DNA of 22,144 nt from positions 1 to 22,144 of the IMG/VR virus record IMGVR_UViG_3300046055_000032; one strand, 5' to 3'. This DNA is from a virus (lineage: Duplodnaviria > Heunggongvirae > Uroviricota > Caudoviricetes). The notes under the pieces are model-generated. The model was given only the letters and a program-made list of their open reading frames with translations. It had not been told where the DNA came from and did not search any database. The translations under genes and the position numbers were made by a program. Shown here piece after piece: positions 4,736 through 16,328 of this stretch. Positions within the stretch are counted from its first letter, which is position 1, and every line of letters starts with the position of its first letter.

Positions 4736-5000
4736 GAAGTCGGAACACGACGGCATCCACTCCCAGGACCTCTACCAGCGGTACTTTGAGGTCGTCGCGG
4801 ACACCGACACTCACCCCTCCGGGAGGGACGAGGAACCGTACTCCAAGCGGTACTTGGAGGATCTCGTCACGGAGCTGGAGGACGACGAGCGCATCATCTC
4901 GGAGATCGAGTCCCGCGGCCGCGGCGGTTTCGGGAAACGGTTCTGGGTCACGACGTTCGTTTCGGCGCGAGACTTCGACGACTGGGAGCCTGACGTATGA
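4674..5000 (+). CDS. Stand-alone winged-helix protein resembling the Orc1/Cdc6 C-terminal DNA-binding domain, 108 aa
   Basis: DLYQRYFEV...EPYSKRYLEDLVTELEDDERII...SRGRGGFGKRF follows the Cdc6_C pattern (Y-x-x-Y...P-L-S-x-R...L-x-E-L-E...G-R-G); ATGA coupling to the next gene. Confidence 0.6.
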   Translation: MTRPTRKKKQRHRAILYKIIEKSEHDGIHSQDLYQRYFEVVADTDTHPSGRDEEPYSKRYLEDLVTELEDDERIISEIESRGRGGFGKRFWVTTFVSARDFDDWEPDV

Positions 5001-5629
5001 CGAACGAGCTGAACGTTGACATCCGCGAATCGCAACGCACGATCGACGCGCTCCGCGCGGAAGCCGGCGAGGAGTGGGACGTTAACGTCGCCATGTTCGA
5101 GGTCGCGGACGTCTTCTACACGAACCGCTTCGGCATCGAGCACAAGCGACCGAACGATTTCGCGAACAGCATCACGGACAACCGCATCTTCCAGCAAGCG
5201 GCAGAGTTGAACGAGAACTTCGCGCAACCGTTCATCCTCGTCAGCGGAACCCTCGACGACGCGATGCACGCTCGGCGCGGCTTGAGCCCCGAGAGCGTGA
5301 AAGGTGTCGTCGCCAGTCTTTGTACCCGTCGCGGTGTTCCCGTCCTCTTCGCCGAGAACGAGTTCGCGAGCCTCGTGTTGCGATTGGCGGCAAAAACCGT
5401 GAAGACGGGCCCGATCGAGTACAATCCTGTACGGAAAACCGGAAGCACTCAAGACAAGCGGTACGCTTTGTTAACCCAGTTACCGCAGGTAGGCGAAACG
5501 ATCGCGGAACGGATACTGGACGAATATCCCAACCCTCTAATAGCTCTAAATAATATCGGGGAATGGCCGGAAACGATTCACGGCATCGGTCCCACATCCA
5601 AGGACGAGATCATTGATGTCCTCGAATGA
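4997..5629 (+). CDS. ERCC4/XPF (Hef-like) structure-specific nuclease with C-terminal HhH motifs, 210 aa
   Basis: VDIRE; ADV...GIEHKRPNDFANSITDNRIFQQ (ERKx3D-type); HhH motifs LPQVGETIAERIL and IHGIGP. Confidence 0.85.
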   Translation: MTNELNVDIRESQRTIDALRAEAGEEWDVNVAMFEVADVFYTNRFGIEHKRPNDFANSITDNRIFQQAAELNENFAQPFILVSGTLDDAMHARRGLSPESVKGVVASLCTRRGVPVLFAENEFASLVLRLAAKTVKTGPIEYNPVRKTGSTQDKRYALLTQLPQVGETIAERILDEYPNPLIALNNIGEWPETIHGIGPTSKDEIIDVLE

Positions 5630-7067
5630 ACCACTCACGGAGAAGTACCGCCCGACGACCCTGGACGACGTTTTAGGGCAAGAACAAGCGACGCGCCGCA
5701 TGAAGGAGTACGTGTCGAACTATCACGACGGCGATCTACAGATGCCGCACCTTCTCCTCACCGGACCGCCGGGCGTCGGGAAGAGCAGCGCCGCGTTCGC
5801 GCTCGCGCACGAACTTTACGGGGACGGTTGGGAAGAGAGCGTCCTGGATCTCAACGCCAGCGACGATCGCGGCATCGATCTCATCCGCGGCCGTGTCAAG
5901 GAGTTCGCGCGCAGCGCTCCCGTCGGCGAGGAGTTCGATGTGATCGTGTTGGACGAGGCGGACCATTTGTGCTTGCCGTCGGGATCTCCTGTCGTGACAG
6001 GCATGAGGTCTGGTAGGACGGTGAAACCAATCGAGGAAGTATCTCCTGAGGGTGAAGTGATTCCGTCACTTGATACGGAGACAAAACAACTGAAAAAAGA
6101 TACTGGTAGGTTGGTCGATTCGGGGACGGCTGAATTTTACGAGGTGAACTTCAAAGATGGGAGAAGTGTAACTGCCAGCCCAGAGCATCCGTTCTTTGTA
6201 TTGACCGACGAGGGGGAAATCGTAGAGAAGGAGTTGAGAGAGTTGGGTCCTGGGGATGAGATCGTAGATTTACAAGATAGCGTTGGCCTTAAGAAGTGCG
6301 GGATATGCTCTGATTGGACAAGGAACTCAAGGTTTTGCAGTAAAGACTGCAAAAATGAAGGACATAGCCGCGAAGTCTCTGGGGAGGACAACCCCAGATA
6401 TGGAGAGGATGGTTGGAACAAAGGTCTGACGAAAGACGATGATCCGAGAGTTGCAGCGCAGACCAATCATGGCCCCGATAATGGTAACTGGAACGGCGAT
6501 TTTCATGGTAAGAGCTGGCATGAGTTTGACAACGAGGAGTTGAAAGAAGAGGTCAGGAGGAAGTTATCGAAATCCCGCTCCGGGAAAAGCTATGAAGAGA
6601 TATATGGATCTGAGGAAAGCGCCAGAAAAGAACGCAGAAAAAGAGCGCCGGGGGAAGGTGAAACCGGGAACCTTGGGTCCAGATACCATCTGAAAGACAA
6701 AGACGAGGCTGTGTGTGAAGTTTGTGAGTCAATGTTCCCCGCGTCTGGGATCGATGGCATTTACGTTCACCACATTGATGGGGATCAAAGTAATAACGAA
6801 CCGAGTAACTTGATGAATGTATGCCCAGATTGCCACAATAATGTTTGCCACAACATAGCTGAGAGAACGTCAAATCATTGGGAGAAAATGTCAGAAGATG
6901 AGAAACGTATGAGGGTTGAAAAGATGAGCGAGGGGGTCTCAAAGAAGTGGGATGAGTGGAAAGAAGAGCTACCGGTTTGTGGTGCAGATTGTAAGACAGG
7001 TGGTACTTGTTCAAACCCTGTTAAGGATGATGATGAACAATGTTACATACACAAAGGTGATTCATAA
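5616..7067 (+). CDS. rfcS: RFC small subunit N-terminal half fused to intein N-fragment and HNH endonuclease
   Basis: EKYRPTTLDDVLGQ, GPPGVGKS, LNASDDRGID, VLDEADHL, then CLPSGSPV (intein block A, codon 5970), TASPEHPFFV (block B), HNH VHHIDGDQSNNEPSNLMNVCPDCHN; TAA at 7065-7067. TTG 5613 is an alternative start. Confidence 0.9.
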   Translation: MSSNEPLTEKYRPTTLDDVLGQEQATRRMKEYVSNYHDGDLQMPHLLLTGPPGVGKSSAAFALAHELYGDGWEESVLDLNASDDRGIDLIRGRVKEFARSAPVGEEFDVIVLDEADHLCLPSGSPVVTGMRSGRTVKPIEEVSPEGEVIPSLDTETKQLKKDTGRLVDSGTAEFYEVNFKDGRSVTASPEHPFFVLTDEGEIVEKELRELGPGDEIVDLQDSVGLKKCGICSDWTRNSRFCSKDCKNEGHSREVSGEDNPRYGEDGWNKGLTKDDDPRVAAQTNHGPDNGNWNGDFHGKSWHEFDNEELKEEVRRKLSKSRSGKSYEEIYGSEESARKERRKRAPGEGETGNLGSRYHLKDKDEAVCEVCESMFPASGIDGIYVHHIDGDQSNNEPSNLMNVCPDCHNNVCHNIAERTSNHWEKMSEDEKRMRVEKMSEGVSKKWDEWKEELPVCGADCKTGGTCSNPVKDDDEQCYIHKGDS

Positions 7068-7204
7068 TGCCGGCTGCCAAGAAGAGGGAGATTAACACAG
7101 TAGAAATAGATTCGATAGAGAGTAAGGGCCAAGGCAAGGCTTGGAACATTACCATGGATAAGCGTCCTAACTTCCTGCTTGGCAATGGAATCCTCACGCA
7201 TAAC
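5970..7204 (+). mobile_element. Split intein with HNH homing endonuclease (IntN+HNH 5970-7064; IntC 7067-7204)
   Basis: Inserted at DEADHL|TNQAQAALRRTME. GC in sampled 60-nt lines: 28/60 (6481-6540) and 23/60 (7021-7080) versus 44/60 in the extein (5761-5820). IntC ends NFLLGNGILTHN followed by Thr+1. Confidence 0.85.
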
Positions 7205-7804
7205 ACAAACCAGGCACAGGCGGCGCTGCGCCGCACGATGGAGGATTATCCCTCGTCGCGTTTCATCCTCATCGGTAATTACCCGAACCGTATCATTCGA
7301 CCGATCCGTGACCGTTGCACGACGTTCCCCTTCACGCCCGTTGATCAAGAACGGGGTGTTTCGGCCTTGGCTCGCATCTGCGAGCGCGAGGGGATGGACA
7401 CTGACCGGGCCGCGCTGGAGGCGTTGTGGGAGCAAAACCGCGGTAGTATGCGTGGAGCCCTCAACGCTCTCCAGTCGTTTCCGCCGTCGTTCAGCGCCGA
7501 CGACGTTCAGCGCCATGCACCGTCGCAGGCGGCGAAGGACATCATGCAAGCCCTGGCGCAAGGCGAGACCCGGGACGCCGAGCAGCGGCTCTTGCAGCTC
7601 ATTCGCAGCGGCGTCAGCAGCGACGAAGTGTTCCGTTCATTGTTTGACGTGATCGATGACAGCTCGATGAACGAGGAGGCGAAGGACAACGTCTTGTTCC
7701 GGCTCGGCGAGTACGAGTACCGGGTCCAGACGGGATGCAGCCTCGACGTGCAAGCCCGGTGCTTCCTCCGGGAGATGAACAGTTTGCGGAGGAACGGTCC
7801 ATGA
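7067..7804 (+). CDS. rfcS: Intein C-fragment (46 aa) fused to RFC small subunit C-terminal half
   Basis: MPAAKK...VEIDSIE...AWNITM...GILTHN|TNQAQAALRRTMEDYP..RFILIGNYPNRIIRPIRDRC; own SD GGTGA (7056-7060) and TAATG overlap with the upstream stop. Confidence 0.9.
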   Translation: MPAAKKREINTVEIDSIESKGQGKAWNITMDKRPNFLLGNGILTHNTNQAQAALRRTMEDYPSSRFILIGNYPNRIIRPIRDRCTTFPFTPVDQERGVSALARICEREGMDTDRAALEALWEQNRGSMRGALNALQSFPPSFSADDVQRHAPSQAAKDIMQALAQGETRDAEQRLLQLIRSGVSSDEVFRSLFDVIDDSSMNEEAKDNVLFRLGEYEYRVQTGCSLDVQARCFLREMNSLRRNGP

Positions 7805-8616
7805 AGAGCATCGAAGAGGCACGAATCGAGACGGCGCAAGAGATCCTGGACGAGTCCGAAGCGCGCGATCCGGTGAAGACGTACTGCCTGTTCAGCGGCG
7901 GTCACGACAGTCTCGTCGCGACGCACGTTGCTCACGAACTGAGCGACCCGGATGGCGTCGTGCACATTAACACGGGCATCGGGATTCCCGAGACGAGAAC
8001 GTTCGTGCGCGACACTTGCGAGGCACAGGACTGGAACCTGATCGAGAAGGAAACGGAGCACGAGTACGAGGATCTCGTTCTGGAGCACGGGTTCCCGGGC
8101 CCACAAGCGCATCGGTACGCTTACACGACACTGAAGGAGCGAGCGATTGACGCGCTGCTCCGGGAAGCCAAAGAGTCTCGCGAGCAGGAAGTGGTGTTCC
8201 TGACGGGCGTCCGTCGATCCGAGTCCCGTAACCGGATGGGTAGCGCGGACGTGATCAACAAACGCGGTTCGCAGGTTTGGGCAGCGCCGATCATTTATTG
8301 GGACGCGTTGGACGTTACGCGATGGATTCGCGACCACGACATCGAGCGCAGCCCGGTCGTTGACAAGCTGCACATGAGTGGTGAGTGCCTCTGTGGCGCG
8401 TTCGCGACACGGGGCGAGTTCGAGCAGATCGAAATGTTTTACCCGGAGGTCGCGGAGCGAATCGAGCGATTGGAAGACGAGGCCCGGAACAAGGATATGG
8501 AACGGTGCCGTTGGGGTTGGGCGAACCGAAGACAGGGCGGTGAGAGCGACGATGCCACTGATTACTTCATGCCGTTGTGCAAGGACTGTGAGGCGGCCGA
8601 TGACGCCGAACAATGA
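7801..8616 (+). CDS. PAPS-reductase-family (PP-loop) protein, 271 aa
   Basis: CLFSGGHDS PP-loop, HINTGIGIPET, LTGVRRSESRNR, SGECLCG; ATGA overlap with the rfcS stop (in frame with the track ORF 7735-8616). Confidence 0.8.
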   Translation: MKSIEEARIETAQEILDESEARDPVKTYCLFSGGHDSLVATHVAHELSDPDGVVHINTGIGIPETRTFVRDTCEAQDWNLIEKETEHEYEDLVLEHGFPGPQAHRYAYTTLKERAIDALLREAKESREQEVVFLTGVRRSESRNRMGSADVINKRGSQVWAAPIIYWDALDVTRWIRDHDIERSPVVDKLHMSGECLCGAFATRGEFEQIEMFYPEVAERIERLEDEARNKDMERCRWGWANRRQGGESDDATDYFMPLCKDCEAADDAEQ

Positions 8617-8875: not shown

Positions 8876-11800
8876 ATGGTTACGTTCAAACCGTACAGTA
8901 TCTATTACGAGACGGAGCGCGACGACCTGGTCGTGCACCTGCACGGCCGCACCGCCGATGGGGAACGTCGAAGCGTGAAACTGTACGGTACGCAACCGTA
9001 TTGTTACGGGACGATCGTCCCGAGCCATGACCTCGTCACGGGCGTTGAACGCGACGCTGCCGAAACGTTGCAAGGTGAGAGCGTTCACCGCATCGAGACG
9101 GCGTTCCCGTTCAACGTTCCGAAGATCCGTGACGAGTGCGGTGACACGCACGAAGACGACGTCTGGTTCAGTGATCGCGTCCGTTACGATCACGGCATCA
9201 GGGGCGCCGTCGAGATCCCGGATCGCGACATGTTGAACCCGGGGGAGATCACGCCCATCAGTTACGACGAGCGCCCCGGGATTGACGCGCGCGTCTGTGT
9301 TTTCGACATCGAAGTGGGCAGCAAGCAAGGCTTCCACGGCCCCGACAACCCTGGCGGGGAAGTGCTCAGTATCGCCGCCTGGGACAGTTACCATGACTCG
9401 TACGTGTTCCTGCTGAACGGCCAGTTCGACCCCGCGTCGCAGCGGAAAGCGATGCGGTACTTCAAAAACGAGGACTGGAACGTCCAAATCGTTGAATGCA
9501 GCAACGAGCGCTCGCTGTACCAACGCTTCTGTCAATTCTTGATCGCGGCGCAGCCGGACGTTTTGGCTGGGTGGAACAGTTCCGATACGATGGGCAGCAA
9601 CGGCACGGACGGGTACGACGTACCGTACTTGAAAGCGCGCGCCGAGCTGGTCGGACACCCGCAACCCGATTGGGACCAATACGTCGCGTTCGACCTCATG
9701 GACGCGTACGCTCGAATGCAATTCACCGCGCTGGAAAGCAAAGGCCTGGATTTCGTGAGTCAAAAGGAAGGGCTTGAGGGGAAAACCAGCGACGAGAGCG
9801 TTTGGAAGCTCTACGAGCAGGATCGCGGCAACTTCGCGATCTACAACGTCGCGGACGTCTTCCTCACGAAAGAAGTCATGCAGCGCGCGAACGTTCTCGG
9901 GTTCTGGGAAGAGTTGAGCGACTTCGCTGGCTGCGGACTTCAAGATGCTCTCGCGGCGGGGCGTGTCGTGGATGCGTTCGTGTTCCATTGGTTGCGCGGC
10001 GACGATCGCGTTTTGCCGTCGCGTGGCGGGGGCGAGTCCCTGGATCTCGGCGGGGGCGAGGTTCTCGATCCCAGCGACGGCCTGTTCCGGCACGTGGTCG
10101 AGATCGATCTCTCGTCACAGTACCCGAACGCGATGCGGACGTTCAACTTGAGCCCGGATACGCTCGTGGACGAGGACTTTGACGGTCCCGTGTTCACGAT
10201 GCCGAGCGGTGCCCGTTATCGGAAAGACCAGCGCGGCATTATTCCGCACATCATCGACGAGCTGATTAGCCTTCGCGAGGCGAAACGCTCGCAAGGCAAA
10301 GAGTTAGAGCAGCGCGTTATCAAGGAGGTAGCGAACTCGATCTATGGAAACATAGGTTCGCCCTACAGCCGATTCCGTAACGAGTACATCAGTAACGACA
10401 TCACGGCCAGCAGCCGCGAACTCATCAGCTGGATCGCCAACCAAACAGCCGAACGAGGCGATCGTCCACTGTATGGGGACAGCATCACCAGGGATCGGTT
10501 CGTTACTGTCCGGGACCCCGACGGCAACGTGTACCCCATCAACATCGAAGAGTTCTTCGAGAGCGTGGCGGAACAAACCGGTGCCGCTTGCGAGTTCTTC
10601 CAGCCTGACAACGTCACTCGCCGAGCCGATGGGAAGGAGGAAACGTATCCCGAAGAGTGGGAGGCCCTTACTGTAAACCCCGAAACAGGCGAACCGTGCT
10701 GGCGCCCGGTCCGTTGCATCATCCGTCACGAAACGGACAAGACGATCTACCAGGCCCGGCAAAAGCACGGCATCACTCGATGTACCGAAGACCACTCCCT
10801 CATCGATCAAGACTACGAAGAAGTTCGCCCCGAAGAGTTAGAGGGTCGAGAGATGGCGTATGTTCGGGAACTTCCCCAGGAAGAGTTGAACTCTTCCGTT
10901 GACTTGGCCGATTGGTTATCGTTCGAGGATGTGATGATTGACGAGACCCCCAACATCGGGCAGCGCACTATTTACTGGGACGCAGCACAACGGTGCGGGG
11001 AGGTGGACCGACGCCTCGACGGCAAGCAGCTTGAGAACTTTTGCCGTCTCTTGGGAGCGTACGTGTCAGATGGGAGCGCTGGGACAAGCATCACTCGCGA
11101 CACTCGACGGGGTAGTTGGGGCATCTCGAACCAGAACAATGAATGGCTGGAGGAGATGCAAGAATACGCTCAGTCCGTGTTCCGGGGCGTCAAGCACTCG
11201 ATACTGGACGACATGGAGGGCAGCGGAACGTACAAGATGACGTCAGGGACGCGCCTCCCCGCCACCATCATGACTGTGCTGGCTGGCGCGGGCGCTCGTG
11301 GCAAGAGAGTGCCACGATTCTTGTTCGGGCTTGAGGATCGCTTCAAGTGGGCGTTTCTGGAGGAGGCAATACAAGGCGATGGCTGGTGGAAGGAGGGGGG
11401 CGAGTCGCCGGACGTTGAACAGCATCGTTTCTCGTACTGTTCCACGAGCCAAGAACTCATCTCGGGCCTCTCGCTGTTACTGAACTGCCTGGGCATCGAT
11501 CACGGGGTCAAGTACCGTCCTGAGAAAGAGAGCTACGCTCTGTACCGGCGCGAGCAGGTTCGGGAGACCCGTCTACAAACAACCGTATCGACCATGAAGT
11601 ACGATGGCCCCGTCTTCGACGTGGAGGTCGAGGGAACAAACATGTTCTGCGACTCCCTGGGGCACGTACTTCTCCACAACACGGACTCCGTCTTCTTCTT
11701 GTTCGCGGACGCTCCCGACGATTACCGTGGCGTGCAACGCATGGCGGAGGAGCGTGTCACGGAGCTGAATGACCAACTCGGCGAGTTCGCGGAACGTTAC

Positions 11801-12445
11801 GGATGGGAAGACGGCGACGAGCTGCATCTGGAACTGGACGTAGAGCACGTTTACGAAGCCTGGTACCAGCCGGGCGCCAAGAAAACGTACGTGGCCGTGT
11901 ACCGTGACCCGGACGGCAACATCGAGCGGGACGGGTACCGGTACTCGATGAAAGCCCGCGGTTTCGATCTCCGGTTCAGTAACACGGCCAACCTCACGAA
12001 AACCTTACAAAGGGAGGTGCTCGTCGCGCTCCTGTTCGGTGCCGGCCAAGACGACATCATCGACCATATCCGCGGAACGATCGACGAGCTGAAAGCCGGC
12101 AACATCTCGCACGAAGAGCTGCTCGTCCCGACCGGGTGGAACAAGAGCGAGTACAAGACCGAGCCCGAGCATGTACGCGCCGCGCGGTGGAGCAACGAGA
12201 ACCTCGGCAAGAATTTCGGTCCCGGGGACAAACCGCTCGTCCTGCCAGCGCACGTCGAGGACAAGCCACCGACGGACGTGATCGCGCTCGCGTGGGGTGA
12301 CGATCTCCCGGAGGGTACTGTCATCGACTGGGACGAAGTCGTTCGTAAAGCCATCTTGCAACCGATGGATAACGTTCTGGAACCGATCGGTATCCGGCAA
12401 CGGGACATCCTTCGTCCCACGGCCGAGGCAGACAGCTTCTTCTGA
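8876..12445 (+). CDS. polB: Family B DNA polymerase with 3'-5' exonuclease; contains an intein (1189 aa precursor, about 789 aa mature)
   Basis: ExoI FDIEV, ExoII GWN...YDVPYL, ExoIII YNVAD, motif A DLSSQYP, motif B KEVANSIYG, motif C YGD|TDS split by the intein. Confidence 0.95.
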   Translation: MVTFKPYSIYYETERDDLVVHLHGRTADGERRSVKLYGTQPYCYGTIVPSHDLVTGVERDAAETLQGESVHRIETAFPFNVPKIRDECGDTHEDDVWFSDRVRYDHGIRGAVEIPDRDMLNPGEITPISYDERPGIDARVCVFDIEVGSKQGFHGPDNPGGEVLSIAAWDSYHDSYVFLLNGQFDPASQRKAMRYFKNEDWNVQIVECSNERSLYQRFCQFLIAAQPDVLAGWNSSDTMGSNGTDGYDVPYLKARAELVGHPQPDWDQYVAFDLMDAYARMQFTALESKGLDFVSQKEGLEGKTSDESVWKLYEQDRGNFAIYNVADVFLTKEVMQRANVLGFWEELSDFAGCGLQDALAAGRVVDAFVFHWLRGDDRVLPSRGGGESLDLGGGEVLDPSDGLFRHVVEIDLSSQYPNAMRTFNLSPDTLVDEDFDGPVFTMPSGARYRKDQRGIIPHIIDELISLREAKRSQGKELEQRVIKEVANSIYGNIGSPYSRFRNEYISNDITASSRELISWIANQTAERGDRPLYGDSITRDRFVTVRDPDGNVYPINIEEFFESVAEQTGAACEFFQPDNVTRRADGKEETYPEEWEALTVNPETGEPCWRPVRCIIRHETDKTIYQARQKHGITRCTEDHSLIDQDYEEVRPEELEGREMAYVRELPQEELNSSVDLADWLSFEDVMIDETPNIGQRTIYWDAAQRCGEVDRRLDGKQLENFCRLLGAYVSDGSAGTSITRDTRRGSWGISNQNNEWLEEMQEYAQSVFRGVKHSILDDMEGSGTYKMTSGTRLPATIMTVLAGAGARGKRVPRFLFGLEDRFKWAFLEEAIQGDGWWKEGGESPDVEQHRFSYCSTSQELISGLSLLLNCLGIDHGVKYRPEKESYALYRREQVRETRLQTTVSTMKYDGPVFDVEVEGTNMFCDSLGHVLLHNTDSVFFLFADAPDDYRGVQRMAEERVTELNDQLGEFAERYGWEDGDELHLELDVEHVYEAWYQPGAKKTYVAVYRDPDGNIERDGYRYSMKARGFDLRFSNTANLTKTLQREVLVALLFGAGQDDIIDHIRGTIDELKAGNISHEELLVPTGWNKSEYKTEPEHVRAARWSNENLGKNFGPGDKPLVLPAHVEDKPPTDVIALAWGDDLPEGTVIDWDEVVRKAILQPMDNVLEPIGIRQRDILRPTAEADSFF
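10481..11680 (+). mobile_element. Contiguous intein (400 aa) with LAGLIDADG homing endonuclease in PolB motif C
   Basis: Starts with Ser after YGD; TRCTEDHSL (block B), LLGAYVSDGS and FLEEAIQGDG (DOD motifs), STSQELISGLSLLLNCLGI; ends VFDVEVEGTNMF...LLHN followed by Thr+1. Confidence 0.92.
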
Positions 12446-14464: not shown

Positions 14465-15378
14465 CTCGCCAAAACTCGCTCGTTGACCAGTACGTGGAGC
14501 CGCCGTTCAGTACGCTGAACACTCAATCGCAGCGCTGGCAGGAGCGCAAGAACTGGTGGATCAACCTCGGCATCCAGAGCCACCTCGGTCGCGGGGACAA
14601 CCTGCTTGGTTTCAGCGAGACCGTTCTCGGTGAGAGCGGCGAACTGGACGGGACGAGCATCTTTGACCCCGTGCTGTGCGAGCTGATGTACCGGTGGTAC
14701 TCGCCAGACGACGGGACCGTACTTGACCCGTTCGCGGGCGGTAGCGTTCGCGGGGTCGTGGCTGCGTGCCTCGGCCGAGACTATGTCGGCATTGACGTGA
14801 ACGAGAAGCAGGTCGAGCACAACCGGCAACAATGGAACGAGATCCGCCACGTTAACGACTGGGGCGGCGAGCCGCGTTGGATCGCGGGCGACAGCAAGTA
14901 CGTGCTCCCCACGCTCGACGACGATGCTGATTTCCTGTTCTCGTGCCCGCCCTATTACGCGCTGGAACAGTACACGGACCGGGGCGACGATCTCAGCAAC
15001 GCGCCAAGTTACGACGACTTCGCGAGCGACATGCGCGACATCATCCAGCAAAGTTATGACCAGTTAGCGCCGAACAGTTTCGCTGTATGGGTCGTCGGCG
15101 AGATCCGCGACGACGACGGGTCCTATCACGGTTTCGTTCCCGACACGATCGAATGGTTCCGAGACGCTGGGTTCCGGTACGAGAACGAACTCGTACTGGA
15201 AACCAGTCTCGCGACCGCCGGAATGCGCGCACGGCGCCAGTTCGACGCGAGTCGGCGCGTCGTGAAAACGCACCAGAACGTTCTCGTGTTCTGCAAGGGG
15301 GACGCGAAAACGGCCACGGACCAGCTCGGGGACGTGCAAGCGCAGCCCGGGGACGAGAACGCACAGGAGTTCTTCTAA
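14461..15378 (+). CDS. DNA amino-methyltransferase (N6-A or N4-C), 305 aa
   Basis: Motif I VLDPFAGG precedes motif IV FSCPPY; N-terminal PPFSTL...W...K..W; C-terminal KTHQNVLVFCKG; TTG start with SD GGAGG (14449-14453); ends NAQEFF. Confidence 0.85.
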   Translation: MTRQNSLVDQYVEPPFSTLNTQSQRWQERKNWWINLGIQSHLGRGDNLLGFSETVLGESGELDGTSIFDPVLCELMYRWYSPDDGTVLDPFAGGSVRGVVAACLGRDYVGIDVNEKQVEHNRQQWNEIRHVNDWGGEPRWIAGDSKYVLPTLDDDADFLFSCPPYYALEQYTDRGDDLSNAPSYDDFASDMRDIIQQSYDQLAPNSFAVWVVGEIRDDDGSYHGFVPDTIEWFRDAGFRYENELVLETSLATAGMRARRQFDASRRVVKTHQNVLVFCKGDAKTATDQLGDVQAQPGDENAQEFF

Positions 15379-16328
15379 TGACGCTGCAAGCGGAGTTGTG
15401 TCCGGAGACGTTAACGGAGTACGGGAACACGGAAGAGGCGAGCGTTGGCCGGAACTTTATCGAAAGCTGGCAGCGCGGGCACCCGCTCGCGGACGCTCTC
15501 CTCCTCCACGGACCACCGGGCGTGGGTAAAACGACGCTCGTGCGTTGCCTTGCGCGCAGTTACGGGTTAGAGATGGTGGATTGGGACGCGAGCAGTGACG
15601 TTGACCGCGACACGATCCCCGTCATGTACCGTGCCGCGCTGAGCGCGTCCTGGAACGGGGACCCGAAAATCGTTTTCGTTGACGAAGTCGAGCACATCAC
15701 CACCACGCAACAGCAACGGATCGCTGACATCATTGACGCGAGCCGGCATCCCGTCATCTTGGCGTGCAATCATTACGGGGACGTGCACGAGAGCGTCAAG
15801 GACGCGTGCATGACGATCGAGTTCGGTCCGCCAAAGACGCGAGCCCTGGAACGGTTGGCGAAACGCATCAACGATCGCGAAGCGTTACCGGGCGTTAGCG
15901 CGGAGGACGTTGCGGAGGCCCGATCCTTCCGGCAGCTCCTCGGCGCCGCGTGTGGCGGCTCAGTCGGCGTCGCGCGTGCCGATGACTTCGATGCGCGCAT
16001 CCGTCAACTCCTCCGCGGCGAGGACGTCGATCTGCGGCCCAGCGAGTACTGGTTAGCGAAGGCGTGGCTGCTCGACAACAGTAACGGGACGCCCGCCGGC
16101 GAGTACGATCGATGGTTGGCACGGTACCGTGACGTCGGGTCGTCGATGGAGAAGTACATCAAGCGGGCCGTCCGGCAAGTACAGCGCCGGTGCCGGCAAC
16201 CTCGTTTCCCGTGGAGCGTGACGATCCAGGGTAAGAGCGACGACGAGGAGGACGGGGAGCGTGACGCGGACGACGAGGGGGACGAGGACGAGGAGGGCGC
16301 GAGCGGGATCGCTGCGTCGTTCTTCTGA
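15378..16328 (+). CDS. rfcL: RFC large-subunit-like AAA+ clamp loader, 316 aa
   Basis: LLLHGPPGVGKTT, WDASSD, IVFVDEVE, PVILACN; acidic tail ending IAASFF; TAATG coupling to the methyltransferase stop. Confidence 0.75.
   Translation: MTLQAELCPETLTEYGNTEEASVGRNFIESWQRGHPLADALLLHGPPGVGKTTLVRCLARSYGLEMVDWDASSDVDRDTIPVMYRAALSASWNGDPKIVFVDEVEHITTTQQQRIADIIDASRHPVILACNHYGDVHESVKDACMTIEFGPPKTRALERLAKRINDREALPGVSAEDVAEARSFRQLLGAACGGSVGVARADDFDARIRQLLRGEDVDLRPSEYWLAKAWLLDNSNGTPAGEYDRWLARYRDVGSSMEKYIKRAVRQVQRRCRQPRFPWSVTIQGKSDDEEDGERDADDEGDEDEEGASGIAASFF

Follow-up and report, generated by a model that had tools for sequence, protein, structure and literature searches.

A putative split intein retaining an HNH nuclease on its N-terminal half in the clamp-loader small-subunit gene of a salt-crust virus

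The stretch of DNA considered here (the window, 22,144 nt) is the first 22 kb of a linear, 86,144-bp IMG/VR virus record, IMGVR_UViG_3300046055_000032 (Caudoviricetes), which comes from a halite (salt-crust) metagenome assembly and has a CheckV completeness of 94%. Its gene for the small subunit of the clamp loader RFC (RFC-S) is interrupted by an intein and is encoded as two overlapping open reading frames (ORFs), and a first-pass annotation had proposed that the two products are joined by a naturally split intein that keeps its HNH endonuclease on the N-terminal half. ORF1 starts at a TTG at 5613 or an ATG at 5616 and runs to the TAA at 7065-7067 (484 or 483 aa); it reads ...VLDEADHL|CLPSGSPVV... 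at the boundary between extein and intein and has the C-terminus ...CYIHKGDS. ORF2 (7067-7804, 245 aa) lies in the -1 frame and reads MPAAKKREINTVEIDS...GILTHN|TNQAQAALRR. Its ATG (7067-7069) shares 1 nt with the ORF1 stop, giving TAATG, and a TGA at 7058-7060 closes the ORF2 frame upstream, so that a single indel fusing the two frames would be possible only in 7061-7066. The coordinates of the ORFs, stop, start and TGA, and the confinement of any frameshift to 7061-7066, had all been given in the first-pass annotation and were confirmed on the sequence. The public gene call for this region (P0001, 6003-7067 of the window, 354 aa) begins at Met131 of ORF1 and drops the N-terminal RFC extein (RFC-N) and the first 11 intein residues; automatic annotation therefore conceals the link between RFC and the intein. 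It seems probable, and we infer from the sequence, that the two ORFs together make a functional split intein with the nuclease retained on the N-terminal half (IntN): both would be expressed, with coupled translation, their products spliced and the nuclease active. The features of the locus and of the surrounding replication module are given in Table 1.

Table 1. Features of the RFC-S locus and of the neighbouring replication module (positions in the window).
Feature	Coordinates	Strand	Details
RFC small-subunit N-extein	5616-5969	+	118 aa from ATG 5616; Walker A (GPPGVGKS), Walker B (DEAD); ends ...DEADHL
IntN splicing lobe	5970-6272	+	Intein residues 1-101; Cys1 (block A, CLPSGS), block B (SPEHPFF)
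Putative homing-endonuclease region, in frame with IntN	6273-6977	+	Cys-rich linker, weak NUMOD3-like match, HNH core ~6714-6842
Cys3-His finger and end of ORF1	6978-7064	+	CGADCKTGGTCSNPVKDDDEQCYIHKG (6978-7058), then DS, closing ORF1; repeat-family matches elsewhere
Junction	7055-7069	+	Shine-Dalgarno-like AGGTGAT 7055-7061, 5-nt spacer, TAATG (stop 7065-7067, start 7067-7069)
C-terminal intein half (IntC)	7067-7204	+	46 aa; block F (AWNITMDKRPNF), block G (GILTHN)
RFC small-subunit C-extein	7205-7804	+	199 aa and stop; +1 Thr (TNQAQAALRR), lid and Rep_fac_C domains
Low-GC island coinciding with intein	5990-7200		44-50% GC vs 60-64% in flanks
AAA_24 ATPase			Replication module around RFC-S locus
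ERCC4 nuclease	4997-5629		Replication module
PAPS-reductase-like gene			Replication module, listed between RFC-S locus and PolB
PolB	8876-12445		Replication module
Modification enzymes			Replication module, listed between PolB and RFC-large
RFC-large	15087-16328		Replication module
SNF2 helicase			Replication module, listed last

The domain order proposed in the first-pass annotation (RFC-N, blocks A and B, HNH and finger on one ORF; IntC ending THN|T and the C-terminal extein, RFC-C, on the other) was borne out by Pfam, PHROG and alignment. Pfam finds AAA on ORF1 and Rep_fac_C on ORF2 (E 1.8e-9), and the AAA+ features of an RFC-S are present (GPPGVGKS, DEAD and an IRDRC arginine-finger box), the usual SRC box being DRC, as it is in the closest intein-free RFC, P0014 (318 aa). 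RFC-N and RFC-C are 63-64% and 60% identical respectively to P0014, which aligns end to end with both exteins (at 2-119 and 116-314), and the clamp-loader profile phrog_168 is covered at 5-112 by ORF1 and at 111-304 by ORF2, the exteins abutting at 112/111. The predicted spliced product is a protein of 317 aa with the junction ...DEADHL-TNQAQ.... The Pfam model Intein_splicing matches ORF1 (E 1e-11, 45.3 bits against a cut-off of 35.8) and the residues of a class-1 intein are present, namely Cys120 of ORF1 right after DEADHL, a block B in which S-P-E-H-PFF is invariant in the alignment, a His-Asn terminus and a +1 Thr (residues 25-46 of ORF2 are AWNITMDKRPNFLLGNGILTHN, followed by +1 Thr47). 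The break lies between blocks B and F, and there between the nuclease and block F, with the N and C parts on separate ORFs in different frames, and the IntN lobe is 48-60% identical to contiguous RFC inteins, IntC 55-63% identical to the matching segment of contiguous relatives. The nuclease has no stop or start of its own and is in frame with IntN from 5970 to 7064. Its core reads CEVCE...GIYVHHIDGD...NL...CPDCHNNVCH, and the CxxC...HH...N...CxxCH beta-beta-alpha-metal motif (CEVCE...GIYVHHIDGDQSNNEPSNLMNVCPDCHNNVCH) is complete and shared with the HNH-type relatives P0002-P0006 and P0008. PHROG HNH families match ORF1 with a best E of 7e-8; Pfam HNH_3 reaches 22.4-23 bits, slightly below its cut-off of 24.8, and HNH is also under its gathering score. 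This copy retains every catalytic or invariant residue of the intein as well as the HNH motif; its private substitutions are mostly conservative, and it reads as an intein without signs of decay.

The junction between the two ORFs looks like a translationally coupled gene boundary. The first-pass annotation had reported that the ATG at 7067 has its own Shine-Dalgarno (SD) sequence, and this is indeed present, although it is not GGTGA at 6 nt but the longer AGGTGAT at 5 nt. It constitutes a 7-nt match to the anti-SD sequence, among the best such matches in the window; anti-SD matches of at least 7 nt at a spacing of 3-10 occur at 0.18% of positions in the 86-kb genome. It has been found that 1-nt gene overlaps in Haloferax volcanii are coupled by termination-reinitiation and often link subunits of one complex (PMC6728339, PMC10666635). 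Homology supports the frame of ORF1 up to HKG (7058) and that of ORF2 from INTVEI (7091) on, and by this alignment the frame change sits exactly at the canonical site of splitting and endonuclease insertion, sparing both HINT lobes and the nuclease. The six nucleotides 7061-7066 (TTCATA) contain no homopolymer and no run longer than 2. The nucleic-acid data consisted of contigs of three DNA runs from one halite study, and a 54.9-kb Logan contig of one of them (run X1, depth 25.6) provides a second assembly with 0 differences and 0 gaps over 5400-8000 and no indel variant listed. The stretch that the first-pass annotation had singled out for scrutiny (7050-7080) is reproduced base for base in this contig at ~26x. 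The contigs of runs X2 and X3 leave 6009-7139 uncovered and are neutral as to the intein.

An important consideration is how such a boundary came to lie within an intein. The finger that closes ORF1 has the form CGAxxxxGxxCxxPVxxxxxxCxxHKG and the stop follows four residues after its His. The ~55-aa tail ending in the finger is an insertion relative to all of the intein's relatives, and the finger was found in none of 40 related intein loci. Pfam recognises no family in the ORF1 tail alone and the finger was detected solely by a search of 1.84 billion representative proteins, which returned tandem C-terminal copies in the integrase-like proteins P0134 and P0135, a small protein (P0137) and the GIY-YIG proteins P0136 and P0140; no Pfam model matched the finger itself on the finger-bearing proteins scanned. 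The small Cys3-His finger noted in the first-pass annotation is real and belongs to a repeat family present in other proteins. In the four sequences inspected (P0134, P0135, P0137 and P0140) the chain stops 1-4 residues past the last finger His. Since the finger occupies the natural C-terminus elsewhere and the tail is absent from contiguous relatives, the stop codon would appear to have come in with the module; the split is then probably the result of the capture, by the nuclease, of a C-terminal Cys3-His finger complete with stop codon. A second finger-bearing ORF of this virus (G000:C1 ~80166-80948, minus strand; L046:1167-1949) contains the tandem copies CEYPTDDGSPCQLIPPDGEDRCHHH and CGYPTDNGSPCELPGTRGDEERCHHH.

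A variety of searches have looked for relatives of the intein. A protein search yielded ~12 RFC proteins with this intein (P0002-P0013), each a single ORF of 598-770 aa, and a frame-independent scan of JGI metagenome contigs yielded 40 loci, of which all complete ones but L045 have block G in frame and no stop, so that ~45 relatives of the intein are contiguous in total. The family takes several forms, with HNH inteins of 357-366 aa, a PD-(D/E)xK/Vsr-like class of 435 aa and mini-inteins of 168-221 aa that lack a nuclease; P0007 and P0010 carry the PD-(D/E)xK-type nuclease and P0009 is truncated in the nuclease region. One RFC-S site is thus occupied by one intein family with interchangeable nuclease modules (HNH in P0002-P0006, the 435-aa class in P0007, P0010 and L009-L033, with L034-L042 also compared), and Vsr-like nucleases inside inteins were stated not to be known by Dassa et al. 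(PMC2677866). The locus that departs from the rule, L045:31-2318 (JGI contig Ga0172365_10063633), is a low-GC relative whose frame is broken at an A6 run at ~1113-1119, with a Vsr-like nuclease and IntC on the second ORF, and looks like an ordinary homopolymer frameshift or assembly error. Apart from the present copy, no split half of the family, N or C, was found in 5.8 billion protein clusters, IMG/VR, JGI metagenome contigs or indexed sequencing runs. A scan of IMG/VR with the intein protein gave no relative beyond the record itself and blastn of 5400-8000 against a phage GenBank collection gave no match. The comparison of IntC and the RFC halves with related viruses that the first-pass annotation had suggested has therefore produced contiguous relatives, but no second split copy.

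The intein is evidently a newcomer at this locus. It is the sole stretch below 50% GC in the 86-kb genome, and in comparison with the relatives the intein lobes are 48-63% identical, whereas the RFC-C extein is just 27-34% identical, which is the pattern expected of a horizontally moving element. An intein-free allele was found in a contig of run X2, from a sister halite sample, in a virus ~97% identical to this one; it joins 5963 directly to 7217, exactly the expected length, and reads ...GAC TCACTT|ACTAACAGCGCC... at the insertion site. The occurrence of this allele in so close a virus indicates that the invasion was recent, and its occurrence in the same habitat that targets for a homing nuclease exist. 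The two alleles differ at 10 of 18 nt at the insertion site (DEADHL|TNQA as against DEADSL|TNSA) and at 3 of ~125 nt in each flank, both using low-GC codons at the site; the other extein differences listed between them are seven synonymous and one non-synonymous. The divergence at the site fits co-conversion during homing, but could equally be target-site divergence or a nuclease-resistant target. That the HNH homing nuclease cleaves the intein-free allele is suggested indirectly, in that the coexisting allele and the divergence of the site both fit such an activity.

There is also some evidence bearing on whether a working RFC-S is required and whether the halves could restore it. The 94%-complete genome was found to contain no second RFC-S, and the other genes of the replication module, RFC-L and PolB among them, are intact; a sole RFC-S beside an intact RFC-L and PolB suggests that the gene is probably needed. 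When IntN with its HNH domain was modelled in complex with residues 1-60 of ORF2, a score of 0.76 was obtained, compared to 0.00 for the best of three controls, the mark having been reached in the benchmark by 51 of 78 solved complexes and by 2 of 108 mismatched pairs. Three model runs agree in at least 72% of contacts, the predicted local distance difference test (pLDDT) of the partner is at least 64, and in the model IntC residues 9-45 pack on IntN residues 1-105. The modelling supports the view that the two halves are compatible for association.

A number of points weigh against a functional split intein. The split is a singleton, its state being shared by none of the relatives, and there is thus no evidence from conservation that selection maintains it. 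Part of the SD match is imposed by the conserved Lys-Gly codons of the finger, and the agreement across the junction rests on contigs, both assemblies probably deriving from the same sample and reads. The intein is so recent that a 1-nt deletion would not yet show as other decay, and a host enzyme could substitute if the virus had lost its own RFC-S. The success of the complex model may reflect likeness to the solved split-intein complexes in the PDB and is not proof of binding, and a 365-aa IntN bearing a nuclease may associate or splice poorly. Nor does charge provide a mark of adaptation to the split state, a possibility that was considered and rejected: the net charge of about +2 that the first-pass annotation had given for IntC is correct (with a core segment of net 0), but it is not distinctive, as the matching segment of contiguous relatives spans -6 to +3, and IntN is no more acidic than the IntN of those relatives.

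The alternative that survives best, albeit an unlikely one, is that of a recent inactivating frameshift, in which a contiguous intein with an internal finger suffered a 1-nt deletion in 7061-7066, ORF2 is made little or not at all, RFC-S is dead and the host clamp loader is used instead. The contiguity of all complete relatives but one is what it would predict, and L045, which is simply frameshifted, gives a base rate of ~1 in 40; L045, however, breaks at an A6 run, and no homopolymer exists at the present site. A random indel would have a chance of only ~6 in 2190 (~0.3%) of falling in the sole interval that leaves both halves intact, and would in addition have to create an overlapping stop and start behind a 7-nt SD of the kind found at 0.18% of positions. 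An ancestral ...GDS-I-MPAAKK... reading through the junction is possible, yet elsewhere the finger is found at the C-terminus of its proteins. Secondary decay would not yet be expected in so recent an intein, and its lack does not speak against a frameshift; the intact RFC-L and replisome module with no second RFC-S do. It must also be borne in mind that a product born of a deletion could still trans-splice, so that this explanation covers just the non-functional outcome. Where a gene is needed, the frameshifts expected to persist are precisely those after which the split intein still works, and even an origin by recent deletion is therefore compatible with function.

The remaining alternatives fare worse. 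It is very unlikely that RFC-S is a two-piece enzyme held together non-covalently, with the intein halves as a dimerisation module that does not splice, as with the split NrdA of phage Aeh1 (cited in PMC2677866). Fragmented enzymes that assemble without splicing are known (PMC2677866, PMC3045599) and the halves are predicted by modelling to associate, but the splicing residues (Cys1, the His of block B, the terminal THN and the +1 Thr) are all intact and conserved with contiguous relatives, and an intein of ~410 aa beside Walker B would probably block the ATPase site. There is equally little to recommend a sequencing or assembly artefact, the true virus having one contiguous RFC-intein ORF. 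Metagenome assemblies do carry indels and the two assemblies probably share their reads, but the same sequence came out of both assemblers, at a word depth of ~26x and with no indel variant on record. Within TTCATA no base occurs more than twice in a row, and the error would also have had to produce a chance TAATG behind an SD. A programmed -1 ribosomal frameshift or read-through, giving a contiguous cis-splicing precursor, would suit the -1 difference between the ORF frames, but was rejected as next to negligible, for the slip would be confined to 6 nt, GAT_TCA_TAA contains no slippery heptamer of the form X_XXY_YYZ and no significant RNA structure was detected downstream of the junction (z = 0.28, with 121 of 200 shuffles folding at least as well).

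The suggestion of the first-pass annotation that splicing probably takes place at high salt is plausible for the habitat, but has nothing specific behind it, RFC-C being nearly neutral and the charge of IntC unremarkable. The viral RFC-C extein (7205-7804) has a charge of -0.4 per 100 residues, compared to -1.3 for the whole of P0014, and the intein-bearing RFC relatives, taken whole, are strongly acidic at -8 to -15 per 100 residues (those with a named source being cellular). For a virus thought to replicate in a salt-in host, so nearly neutral an RFC-C is unexpected.

If the split intein is functional, the course of events can be envisaged as follows. A mobile class-1 intein with an HNH homing nuclease recently invaded the Walker-B site (DEADxL|T) of the viral RFC-S gene; the nuclease would have gained a C-terminal Cys3-His DNA-binding finger along with that module's stop, and the last 46 intein residues would then have gained a start codon of their own. 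ORF1 and ORF2 would be translated from one replication-operon transcript, with ribosomes terminating at the TAA and restarting at the overlapping ATG behind its strong SD to give near-equimolar halves. IntC would dock on the IntN lobe and complete the HINT fold, and trans-splicing would proceed by an N-S shift at Cys120, trans-esterification to Thr47 of ORF2 and cyclisation of Asn46, with participation of the block B His. The products would be the 317-aa RFC-S and a non-covalent complex of IntN-HNH-finger and IntC, and the released complex could cut the intein-free RFC alleles of co-infecting relatives. The more ambitious proposal, that this is a mobile, naturally split intein with an active nuclease on its N-half, homing as a unit, trans-splicing and born by capture of finger and stop, is put forward tentatively, its prospects lying a little short of even. 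Such an element would be a living intermediate form linking fractured genes with contiguous inteins. It would also be the first natural split intein to come from a virus of hypersaline surroundings, and a candidate salt-adapted trans-splicing tool.

It is worth asking what would follow from the different outcomes. If the halves splice, loss or detachment of the nuclease need not precede the splitting of an intein, which fills a step only postulated in the model of Dassa et al., and capture of a C-terminal DNA-binding module with its stop codon would be a concrete mechanism of splitting. Replication proteins known to be trans-spliced in nature are few, and the locus would add to them a clamp loader and a virus of a salt-crust community. 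It would provide a new, orthogonal pair of split-intein halves (Thr +1, 46-aa IntC) of hypersaline origin; inteins of halophiles already serve as salt-inducible tools (PMC7098700). Should the locus instead prove to be a fresh frameshift, it would amount to an ordinary broken gene in a virus assembled from a metagenome.

The closest relatives of the locus, in sequence, are the contiguous inteins of RFC-S. In archaea, Halobacteria among them, inteins are well known at four sites of RFC-S, and all described ones are contiguous (PMC4760082). The contiguous HNH RFC-S inteins of Halobacteria and halophile metagenomes (P0002-P0010, L006-L043) share the insertion point, DE[AS]DxL|C...THN|T, and the splicing blocks, with splicing lobes 48-63% identical, and the HNH-type members P0002-P0006 and P0008 have the same HNH module, but all are single ORFs without finger tail, stop or restart. 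The literature search, partial in coverage, found no description of a natural split intein with its nuclease on the N-half or of a split RFC intein, which accords with the first-pass annotation, where a split RFC intein of this layout was not known. With the cyanobacterial DnaE and Nanoarchaeum equitans PolB inteins (cited in PMC2677866) the locus shares a split between blocks B and F and a small IntC (36-46 aa), but those inteins have lost the nuclease and their halves lie at distant places in the genome; their conservation across species is established and splicing is proven. According to a recent survey, a split intein can result when a stop codon arises inside a nuclease that is degrading (bioRxiv 10.1101/2025.01.02.630785); in the halite virus, by contrast, the nuclease is intact and the stop follows it.

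A classical fractured gene for an RFC-like clamp loader was encountered in a phage-like JGI contig of 60 kb (L001:4424-6726, Ga0394780_000078), with the same arrangement in L002, and no description of a split clamp-loader intein such as this was found in the literature searched. Its N-half, a 205-aa RFC-N with IntN, breaks off after DEC|L; next come a TnsA/Vsr-like nuclease on an ORF of its own (313 aa) and a 241-aa IntC with RFC-C (P0128, +1 Cys). As in the halite virus, a clamp-loader ATPase is split near its Walker-B site by a split intein with the genes adjacent, and L001 is a precedent for the insertion site; it differs in that its intein is of an unrelated family (+1 Cys, IntC of ~39 aa), its nuclease is a separate ORF and its contig is low in GC and bacterial-phage-like.

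Fractured genes were described by Dassa et al. (PMC2677866) as split inteins with a homing-endonuclease gene between the halves, in phage-like metagenome loci (for example gp41-1, NrdJ-1 and IMPDH-1). The present locus resembles them in that the break in a viral replication gene falls inside an intein, where the endonuclease inserts, with the halves adjacent and co-oriented, and in that the IntC gene starts before the nuclease coding region has ended (the overlap being 6-69 bp in the 15 loci of Dassa et al., 1 nt here). The gene-breaking logic, whereby an invading module supplies a stop and a start, would likewise be the same. It differs in its host gene, the RFC-S of an archaeal-type virus, in having an HNH nuclease with a Cys3-His finger where Dassa et al. 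had GIY-YIG and Vsr-like nucleases, and above all in that the nuclease is not free-standing but in frame with IntN, in a single protein of 484 aa. In step IIIa of the model of Dassa et al. an in-frame nuclease fusion arises through loss of the nuclease flanks, a half-fused state not being reported, and it is to a half-completed step IIIa that the layout of the halite virus corresponds.

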